A stretch of DNA of 64,000 bases from contig CM120640.1 of NCBI GenBank assembly GCA_051362555.1, positions 70,596,788 through 70,660,787 on the forward strand, given 5' to 3'. The notes below the pieces were generated by a model. That model did no database searches and had not been told where the DNA came from. It worked only from the letters and a program-made list of their open reading frames with translations. The stretch comes from Lingula anatina. Taxonomy: Eukaryota; Animalia; Brachiopoda. Positions 20,501-21,915 of the stretch are shown here, piece after piece. Numbering within the stretch: the first letter of the stretch is position 1; each line of letters opens with the position of its first letter. The translations under genes and the position numbers were made by a program.

Positions 20501-21915
20501 TGCCCGACAAAGATATTTTGTGGATTAATGATTGCTTTTTGCATGGGCAGAGAGACATGTCCCCTGGGTTGTTACTGAGATGATGGTTTTACTTCACTTT
20601 TGTCAAGTTGACCAGTGGCTTCATATGTCAGTGTTCCATAACATTGGTTGCTTCAAAACTCCCCTAAATATGTCAGGTTTGATTAGCTGAAGGCCTTCTT
20701 TGCAGAATTCTATAACGAAACACTCCTCTGTTGAAAACTATCTAATGACTAGTAGATTGGTTTGTTTTAGTTTATGATAGCTATATGTGGACTTGAATTG
20801 ATCAAGAGTTTTTCTACATGTCAAATGCTGTGAAGCCACAGTCTTATGATATAGTAAATAATTACAGTAATTTATCCTTATATGGTGCAATCAATGAAGA
20901 TCTAAAATTACATATTGCTAATTAAAAAATTTAAGTTTTGTATCTGAGAATAACTTATTAAGATTAATTCAAAGGATGGAAGATCTAATGCAATACAACT
21001 TTTCCTTATAAGTTTCTATAATAGGATTTTAAATGTAGGTCCATGACAGTCTCAGAATTTTAAAGTCATCTGCAGTGCTTATGACTGTATGCAAACATTG
21101 GTGCATATATTATTATTGTCAATTCAACATAAAATTTGATAGTTATTTTCTTAAACAGAATATACTTAAAGATGTGTTTATGTTTGACCATCATCATGTT
21201 GTTATTGCAGGATAACCCATGTCCTGTCTGCCTTGTGTGTATATGTATAACTATTGTTATGTTGTTATTGCAGGATAATCCAACATGTCCTGTCTGCCTT
21301 GTGTGTATATGTATAACTATTGTTATGCTGTTATTGCAGGATAATCCAACATGTCCTGTCTGCCTTGTGTGTATATGTATAACTATTGTTATGTTGTTAT
21401 TGCAGGATAATCCAACATGTCCTGTCTGCCTTGTGTGTATATGTATAACTATTGTTATGTTGTTATTGCAGGATAATCCAACATGTCCTGTCTGCCTTGT
21501 GTGTATATGTATAACTATTGTTATGTTGTTATTGCAGGATAATCCAACATGTCCTGTCTGCCTTGTGTGTATATGTATAACTATTGTCATGTTGTTATTG
21601 CAGGATAATCCAACATGTCCTGTCTGCCTTGTGTGTATATGTATAACTATTGTTATGTTGTTATTGCAGGATAATCCAACATGTCCTGTCTGCCTTGTGT
21701 GTATATGTATAACTATTGTCATGTTGTTATTGCAGGATAATCCAACATGTCCTGTCTGCCTTGTGTGTATATGTATAACTATTGTCATGTTGTTATTGCA
21801 GGATAATCCAACATGTCCTGTCTGCCTTGTGTGTATATGTATAACTATTGTCATGTTGTTATTGCAGGATAATCCAACATGTCCTGTCTGCCGTGTGGAG
21901 GTTCAGCTGCACTGA
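1..21915 (+). CDS. RING-H2 E3 ubiquitin ligase, RNF38/RNF44/ARK2C-like C-terminus; 5'-partial, multi-exon
   Basis: Frame-compatible GT-AG exons <1-58, 269-330, 920-1009, 7236-7454 and 21868-21915 join to ...[23 protein letters not shown]...CHICMCDY...[35 protein letters not shown]. This is a complete C3H2C3 RING-H2 preceded by the 'YEeLLxLaERLG' motif typical of RNF38/44/165-type ligases. Confidence 0.88.
92..181. repeat. (CT)n microsatellite
   Basis: Direct reading of the sequence. Confidence 0.98.
3599..3950 (+). mobile_element. Non-autonomous DNA transposon (MITE), Kolobok-like, copy A
   Basis: TTAA|AGGGATAATAACTCTTCG ... CGAAGAGTTATTATCCCT|TTAA: terminal inverted repeats, TTAA TSD and purine-purine start (Kolobok-type; piggyBac starts CC). 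Two more copies are in the window. Confidence 0.82.
7236..7454 (+). CDS. RING-H2 gene exon encoding the first six Zn ligands
   Basis: tacag| acceptor and AAG|gtgagc donor; 219 nt, phase 0-0; C-x2-C ... C-x-H-x2-H-x2-C-x3-W pattern. Confidence 0.93.
8244..8313. repeat. (TA)n microsatellite
   Basis: Direct reading. Similar (TA)n tracts lie at about 36169-36208, 53246-53313 and 59764-59821. Confidence 0.97.
9450..9674. mobile_element. Degenerate foldback / MITE-like element
   Basis: The arm GCTCATTCCCA..CTATCATTCTACATGGATCAATCCAA..AGGGACTCTT pairs imperfectly with AAGAGTCCCT..TTGGATTGATCTACGTGGAATGATAG..TGGGAATGAGC. Confidence 0.6.
12164..12497 (+). mobile_element. Kolobok-like MITE, diverged copy B
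   Basis: TTAA|AGGGATAACTC ... GAGTTGTTTTCCAT|TTAA. Internal blocks (CATTCAAAATTAGTCC, AGAGATTAT, TCAGAATAAT) are colinear with copy A. Confidence 0.7.
14858..15194 (-). mobile_element. Kolobok-like MITE, copy C (inverted relative to copy A)
   Basis: TTAA|AGGGGTAATAACTCTTCATATGAGATC ... GAGTTATTATCCCT|TTAA. Reverse complement of 3599-3950 along its length. Confidence 0.82.
15229..15373. repeat. 38-bp minisatellite, about 3.8 copies
   Basis: Unit GACCATTCAGGTACCTTACAATGCTAGTCATAGATGGT. Confidence 0.9.
15441..15848. mobile_element. CpG-rich element with two interleaved inverted-repeat pairs
   Basis: Pair A: 15441-15524 with 15638-15721. Pair B: 15551-15597 with 15802-15848. Confidence 0.65.
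19460..19895. repeat. 28-bp minisatellite, about 15 copies
   Basis: Unit CTGACCACTGGCCACAACACAGGGACYT with point variants. Confidence 0.95.
21195..21892 (+). repeat. 66-bp tandem repeat (about 10.5 units) made of the intron 3' end plus the start of the terminal exon
   Basis: Unit GTGTGTATATGTATAACTATTGTYATGTTGTTATTGCAG|GATAATCCAACATGTCCTGTCTGCCTT. Acceptor AGs end at 21210, 21273, 21339, 21405, 21471, 21537, 21603, 21669, 21735, 21801 and 21867. The first unit is 63 bp (Thr codon missing). Confidence 0.97.
21868..21915 (+). CDS. RING-H2 gene terminal coding exon ([15 protein letters not shown])
   Basis: ttattgcag| acceptor, phase 0. Supplies the missing CPxCR pair at canonical spacing after WIK; TGA ends at 21915. 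Confidence 0.85.
   Translation, partial: DNPTCPVCRVEVQLH

Follow-up and report, generated by a model that had tools for sequence, protein, structure and literature searches.

A minisatellite in the brachiopod Lingula anatina spans the boundary between the last intron and the terminal exon of a gene that is predicted, from its domain, to encode a RING-H2 E3 ubiquitin ligase. The array is an acceptor-type mirage minisatellite, with four of the five features of that class. Read depth indicates that splicing uses the last copy nearly exclusively, and the ten upstream copies are likely silent decoys. We put at roughly 0.7 the probability of the whole reading, namely that the minisatellite copies the last intron/exon boundary eleven times, that splicing goes almost only to the last copy, and that ten decoys leave with the intron.

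The host gene and the repeated boundary

The gene lies on the + strand of the window, i.e. the whole stretch of 64,000 nucleotides analysed here, and starts upstream of it. P0001, a 1001-residue Lingula anatina protein that NCBI names 'E3 ubiquitin-protein ligase Arkadia isoform X2', matches, by tblastn and with GT/AG ends, three earlier exons of its coding sequence within the window (to 58; 269-330; 920-1009). The penultimate exon (7236-7454; 219 nt, phase 0) encodes the first six RING-H2 zinc ligands, ends in ...CIDRWIK/GTGAG with a phase-0 donor, and is 100% identical in translation to residues 914-986 of P0001. With the copy 11 acceptor in use, as the RefSeq junction WIK/DNPT and the read arithmetic described below indicate, the last intron is 7455-21867 (14,413 nt) and contains copies 1-10. 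The coding part of the terminal exon is 21868-21915, with the Arg codon at 21892-21894, and the 3' UTR extends from 21916 at least to 22500, the end of the stretch examined, where contigs of run X5 cover 21866-22225 and 22267-22500 (depth 14.4 and 14.3). The RefSeq models P0001 (isoform X2) and P0009 (isoform X1), two of the three cluster members read, both terminate on copy 11. They are equal in length and differ at 16 residues, all in 29-576 and encoded outside the window; rather than splice forms, they look like an N-terminal exon of which two haplotypes were assembled next to each other.

PF13639 (zf-RING_2) matches P0001 over positions 2-44 of 44 (E 9.7e-12), with all C3H2C3 ligands present; the donor exon on its own covers positions 2-35. 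The full zf-RING_2 domain and the CPxCR end are shared with RING-H2 ligases of the RLIM/RNF38/Arkadia type. Among solved structures the best matches are RLIM (E 5e-18) and RNF38 (E 2e-16), followed by Arkadia (E 2e-11), and we treat 'Arkadia' as a RefSeq label only. The Arg of copy 11 aligns with the Arg after the last Cys in RNF38 and RLIM (CPICR). The aligned RNF38 residue is presumably R454. In the available passages of PMC12326332, the Arg after the last RING Cys acts as the linchpin, and the RNF38 change R454L weakens E2~Ub binding 18.5-fold (Table 1), a figure for binding, the activity of R454L lying outside the variants assayed in those passages. The protein logic of an earlier reading of the letters, here called the first-pass annotation, is upheld by this alignment and this loss of binding. 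Three bivalve-type RNF38 genomic ORFs (P0002, P0003, P0005) break off after WLK, at the corresponding position, which suggests that the intron position is old. No alternative last exon, whose use the same annotation had named as a refutation, was found in the window: no other + strand C[PA]xC[RK] fits, the one further match, at 17126 (CAVCK), having an upstream context that does not agree.

Several other elements lie in the vicinity. The 3' UTR contains a local duplication just past the stop (41 bp x 2, 21934-22015) and a MITE-like element at 22060-22319 with 52-nt inverted arms that are 77% complementary; RNA reads originating elsewhere in the genome align by the hundred to the ends of this element. 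Further along the window, at 39892-48419 and 54185-61110, lie two soluble guanylate cyclase genes in tandem (HNOB, HNOBA, Guanylate_cyc).

The first-pass annotation had described eleven in-frame tandem acceptors leading to one stop, and the sequence bears this out. The AGs end at 21210, 21273, 21339, 21405, 21471, 21537, 21603, 21669, 21735, 21801 and 21867. All eleven read TTGCAG/GATAA, and from each the frame is open (234, 213, 191 ... 37, 15 aa) to a common TGA at 21913-21915. As also claimed, copy 1 lacks the Thr codon, so that the first spacing is 63 nt and the following nine are 66, and the linchpin Arg is restored by copy 11 alone, copies 1-10 encoding CPVC-L and copy 11 CPVC-R. Tandem Repeats Finder reports the minisatellite at 21196-21897 (period 66, 10.7 copies, 98% matches), with the decoy AGs at 21210-21801. 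The proposed unit anatomy, a TAAC motif, a T-rich tract and TGCAG, holds: TAAC lies at -26 to -23 in each of copies 2-11, and neither the branch-like motif nor the tract of copy 11 differs from that of decoys 2-10, the tract being only moderate (13/22 pyrimidines vs 15/22 at the 7236 acceptor). The unit equals the true exon across +1 to +30 except for one mismatch at +26 (G to T), and its homology to the intron upstream of copy 1 starts at -38, with six sites that differ.

The inner units are homogenised and the boundary unit is divergent. Units 2-11 vary at two sites only, and their variants form an ordered pattern along the array. Copy 1 (21173-21235; AG 21209-21210) departs from the unit at 7 of the 39 intron bases, by one substitution, and by the 3-nt loss that is the sole indel among the units. 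Copy 1 is likely the oldest duplicate, to judge from this divergence. The copy number of 11 is the assembly's figure, the reads of the RNA runs covering copies 10 and 11 only.

A twelfth in-frame AG, a weak AAG with a purine-rich upstream region, occurs at 21170-21171, at the point where the unit homology stops; its use would add 13 residues to the RING loop. Annotators should be cautious about an ORF of 260 codons at 21133-21915, which is not a gene; a minus-strand frame of 278 aa is taken as a by-product of the repeat. Pfam matches on the repeat peptide (a GIR1-like ribbon with 26.5 bits at the last CPVC, and DUFs below the cut-off) are composition matches. Recursive or micro-exon splicing is rejected, as none of the AGs is followed by GT. 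Judged by eye, the GT sites that the unit does contain (among them GTGTGT, GTATAT and GTATAA) would make poor donors, and the next AG is just 39 nt away.

Acceptor use in RNA

Four of 20 listed runs were aligned to 21780-22500: raw RNA reads of X11, X14 and X17, chosen by the same species label as the window and read to about 6%, 6% and 25%, respectively, and the contigs of X5. Any read that is spliced to a decoy and extends beyond it by more than 25 nt is expected on 21780-21867, as are all array-internal reads. The depth over 21780-21854 is 0 in X11, 0 in X14 and 2 reads in X17. The letters summed in bin 21855-21879 amount to 14 (X11), 68 (X14), and 98 and 148-50=98 (X17), i.e. 1 (X11), about 5 (X14), and 7 and 7 (X17) reads that start at 21866 with 14 letters each. 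Junction reads are thus obtained by arithmetic on binned depth, with the donor taken from the RefSeq join, and position 21866 marks the AG common to the donor's last codon and the acceptor. Pooled over the three raw runs, about 20 reads are inferred at the copy 11 junction vs 2 inside the array, in a total of about 22 reads whose mates are not independent. The acceptor AG in use is accordingly that of copy 11 (21866-21867), at the depth onset in X11, X14 and X17 and at the start of an X5 contig (21866).

No junction to a decoy was seen in the four runs, at small depth and on the stretch of copies 10-11. The two X17 reads from the array, which traverse copies 10-11, belong to a single mate class and may come from one fragment; at 150 nt they are too short to reach a junction. 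If both were spliced upstream, the share of copy 10 would be 7% (95% bound 20%) and that of copy 1 1.6% (bound 5%); these pooled shares assume animals that carry the array, which is evident for X17 and X5 only, and the animals behind X11 and X14 may be without it. A query with a two-repeat tail found no protein carrying the repeat among 94 candidates of lengths 105-2000 at E 0.01, which is weak evidence. Low-level, tissue-specific or allele-specific use of decoys is possible.

The RNA reads also carry sequence differences. A C to T change at 21891, silent in the last Cys codon, is present in all three raw runs, and X17 differs from the assembly at the UTR sites 21943, 21963 and 21968 in every read.

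The first-pass annotation had favoured a splice-acceptor rheostat on E3 activity. This proposal is not supported: about 20 inferred copy 11 reads stand against 2 array reads without a junction, and both RefSeq models end on copy 11. Its fallback, in which ten near-identical decoys are passed over by the spliceosome, is likely, given the onset of RNA depth at copy 11 and the existence of precedent. The stronger statement that transcripts use only the AG at 21867 agrees with the RNA within its depth, with minor decoy use still fitting within the pooled bounds of 5-20%.

The contigs of X5 give a less simple picture. X5 is recorded as 'DNA?', is marked as possibly the source of the DNA studied here, and is without a library record; the start of one of its contigs at 21866 is our reason for reading it as a transcriptome. 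The unit appears in it as one unbroken contig of 96 nt (66+30, a loop) that carries the T variant, is uncut at 21800, and has a depth of 12.5, the last exon having 14.4. Besides the loop, no X5 contig lies on 21800-21829, where a donor-to-decoy junction would be; this is weak evidence because no entry of any kind into the loop is visible and contigs drop rare paths. From rounded depths, a total of about 14.7 splits into 9.2-11.7 spliced and 3.1-5.4 (21-37%) entering the last exon from the array. The array-derived depth fits best with unspliced RNA whose coverage fades upstream, and it is the main RNA result counting against a wholly silent array. The loop-to-exit ratio is about 2-4, not 10, which as to copy-number variation is only a hint.

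Origin of the array and rival explanations

The array may have arisen as follows. One old 66-bp duplication would have joined exon +29/+30 with intron -38/-37 at a TG overlap. The upstream copy would then have decayed: six intron changes, one silent change, the loss of 3 nt and the replacement of Arg by Leu. Units 2-10 would have come later, from slippage or from unequal crossing-over of one copy with the other, with an exchange within +12 to +25; such an exchange would give units that combine the 5' half of the true exon with the Leu of copy 1, as observed. The decoy Leu would most simply be a point change or a junction error carried along by the decoys. As to the choice among acceptors, the last exon, behind a 14-kb intron, would be recognised by exon definition. 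Copy 11 is the only one to lead into the complete terminal exon with its 3' end signals; behind each decoy, 25-30 exon bases give way to a further U-rich stretch of intron. This proposed account of splice choice is drawn from other systems.

The repeat itself is far beyond chance; its in-frame, stop-free state is not. When the intron part is shuffled, the fraction of trials free of stops is 0.39 with the CAG held fixed and 0.52 with the last 15 nt held fixed; of 271 intronic CAGs in 7500-21100, 114 are preceded by 39 nt without a stop. The chance of an open in-frame unit is about 0.13-0.17 (about 1 in 7), including 1 in 3 for the unit length, and two of the six frames of the array are open. 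Repeats are common in the neighbourhood: the window holds six other minisatellites or short duplications with periods of 25-70 bp, plus a 1-kb array. Other minisatellites lie at 15228-15373, 19459-19895, 29676-30693 and 35350-35460, with units of 38, 28, 22-based and 25 bp; the last intron holds two of these arrays, and no obvious splice boundary is seen by eye at the starts of the window's other arrays. The open frame of the array is likely incidental, and it would make any splicing leak tolerable to surveillance.

The differences among the units follow a less expected pattern. Read through, they are protein-conservative, with at most one radical change of 10 once the junction is corrected (p 0.004-0.007, post hoc); the six intron changes alone give p 0.011-0.016 for the conservative pattern (post hoc), and if the junction base is treated as changed while Arg to Leu is omitted, every codon that differs is silent or conservative (p 0.0002-0.0005, post hoc). 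Codon position 2 is hit by none of nine changes (p 0.03). In + frame 2, a frame closed by a stop, 4 of 5 codons likewise change conservatively, and 6 of the 10 differences set the unit apart from the upstream piece of copy 1, which is translated from none of the 11 acceptors. The pattern, recognised post hoc, keeps some weight against a wholly silent array.

A rival view, supported in part by this pattern, is that upstream acceptors yield regulated CPVC-L ligases with 1-10 hydrophobic, Cys-rich repeats, acting as weakened E3s or membrane-bound competitors, with the frame under selection. All eleven sites are in frame and the sole indel is 3 nt long; decoys 2-10 share the branch-like motif and tract of copy 11; the unit differences are conservative in the read-through frame, both in the lack of changes at codon position 2 and in the at most one radical change; the 19-residue hydropathy of the repeat peptide is 1.4-2.6; R454L in RNF38 is weakened in E2~Ub binding, in the passages of PMC12326332 cited above; and the array-derived depth of X5 and the two X17 reads could stem from such forms. 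We nevertheless consider regulated use quite unlikely: decoy junctions are absent from the four runs, the search of 94 candidates found no repeat protein (weak evidence), an in-frame array arises by chance about once in seven, most of the differences (6 of 10) involve the untranslated upstream piece of copy 1, and the changes are also conservative in the stop-closed frame (4 of 5 codons). Very unlikely, in our estimate, is a form of the mirage in which some tissue, stage or allele uses the upstream acceptors, the linchpin Arg becomes Leu in front of a hydrophobic, Cys-rich tail whose length depends on copy number, and the intron part is selected as protein. If true, the catalytic residue of an E3 would be under a splice dial that is inherited and tuned by length, with exonisation caught in progress; upstream use that is real and selected would be a new way of tuning an E3 via its linchpin.

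The array could also act on the amount of mature mRNA rather than on its form, if decoys draw U2AF and U2 snRNP and so slow or stall removal of the last intron, to an extent set by array length. Unspliced RNA would then stop at 7473-7475, without the last CxxC. An in-frame stop after the donor agrees with this, as does X5, where 21-37% of the last-exon depth comes from the array and the loop depth of 12.5 without visible entry resembles unspliced coverage fading upstream. Duplicated globin 3' sites, moreover, bound factors at both sites and were spliced very inefficiently in vitro (available passages of PMC5389562). However, the raw array reads number 0, 0 and 2, and the junction reads in the same runs 1, about 5 and 14; ordinary pre-mRNA, ten copies of which fold into a single unit, could mimic the X5 picture; and the X5 split derives from rounded depths, with no library record and no control intron of the same gene. 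Stalling is thus unlikely. An assembly artefact, or a wrong copy number, is most unlikely. The eleven copies are given by the assembly only, the X5 loop-to-exit ratio is about 2-4 instead of 10, and the 16 differences in the equal-length N-termini of the RefSeq isoforms indicate that both haplotypes may be assembled in places. Against this stand the ordered variants and the diverged first copy, as well as the X5 loop contig with its T variant and the two X17 reads through copies 10-11. The loop and these reads mean that at least an allele of several units occurs independently of the assembly (X17, unlike X5, is not marked as possibly the source of the DNA), so the single-unit artefact that the first-pass annotation had allowed for very probably does not account for the array, the number 11 alone remaining a figure of the assembly.

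Relation to known repeated splice sites

Two duplicated acceptors described in other systems resemble the silent array in their outcome. Human CBS 844ins68 is a 68-bp duplication of an intron/exon junction in which the distal site is strongly favoured and an upstream copy with a damaging change is spliced out, according to the available part of PMC2630376; the Lingula decoys carry Arg to Leu. CBS has two copies at an internal exon, in contrast to 11 copies at a terminal exon in Lingula. In the beta-globin constructs of Reed and Maniatis 1986, as used in the available passages of PMC5389562, 3' sites duplicated with 14, 55 or 205 nt of exon were spliced only to the distal site in vitro. An upstream acceptor with a truncated exon thus lost to a distal acceptor with the full exon, which is the parallel to Lingula, although these constructs were in vitro, had two sites and a short intron, and spliced inefficiently.

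Exon definition favours the sites closest across the exon (PMC9225289, in the passages available). The same passages, which concern internal exons only, report that among competing human 3' sites the upstream one is favoured overall, and less so under exon definition; the choice of the last copy in Lingula is therefore not automatic. The array offers a natural test bed, in which one acceptor is picked from among ten near-identical ones ahead of a terminal exon. Since the wrong choices stay in frame with a shared stop, their products should escape junction-dependent decay, and a 66-nt ladder would reveal mis-splicing directly.

The closest likeness is to the 'mirage' minisatellites of amphioxus. 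In the available parts of PMC3087553 and PMC3902484, BflGb6 is of the acceptor type and further cases are Adh3, troponin C, BflGb9 and PGBD5; splicing is apparently left undisturbed, and the boundary units escape homogenisation. In both animals an intron end and an exon start are repeated in tandem with the AG kept, inner units are homogenised and the boundary unit has diverged, and the Lingula unit of 66 bp lies within the 10-160 bp of the amphioxus units described there. In Lingula the unit lies head-to-tail over the intron/exon boundary, all 11 units end in TTGCAG, the inner units evolve in concert next to a divergent boundary unit, and the authentic site is used to give a normal mRNA, at the low depth of about 20 reads inferred at copy 11 in three raw runs. 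Length polymorphism is a feature of the amphioxus mirages in these sources; the copy number of the Lingula array comes from one assembly. Unlike those mirages, as far as these sources describe them, the Lingula array belongs to a brachiopod and not a cephalochordate, precedes a terminal exon, has all 11 sites in frame to one stop, and places the junction at a RING linchpin codon. No earlier report of such an array in Lingula was found in the literature searched (few subscription journals and no supplements), and as far as these searches reach it is the first mirage-type array reported in a brachiopod. The reading of the array as a silent mirage extends the lancelet phenomenon to that phylum.
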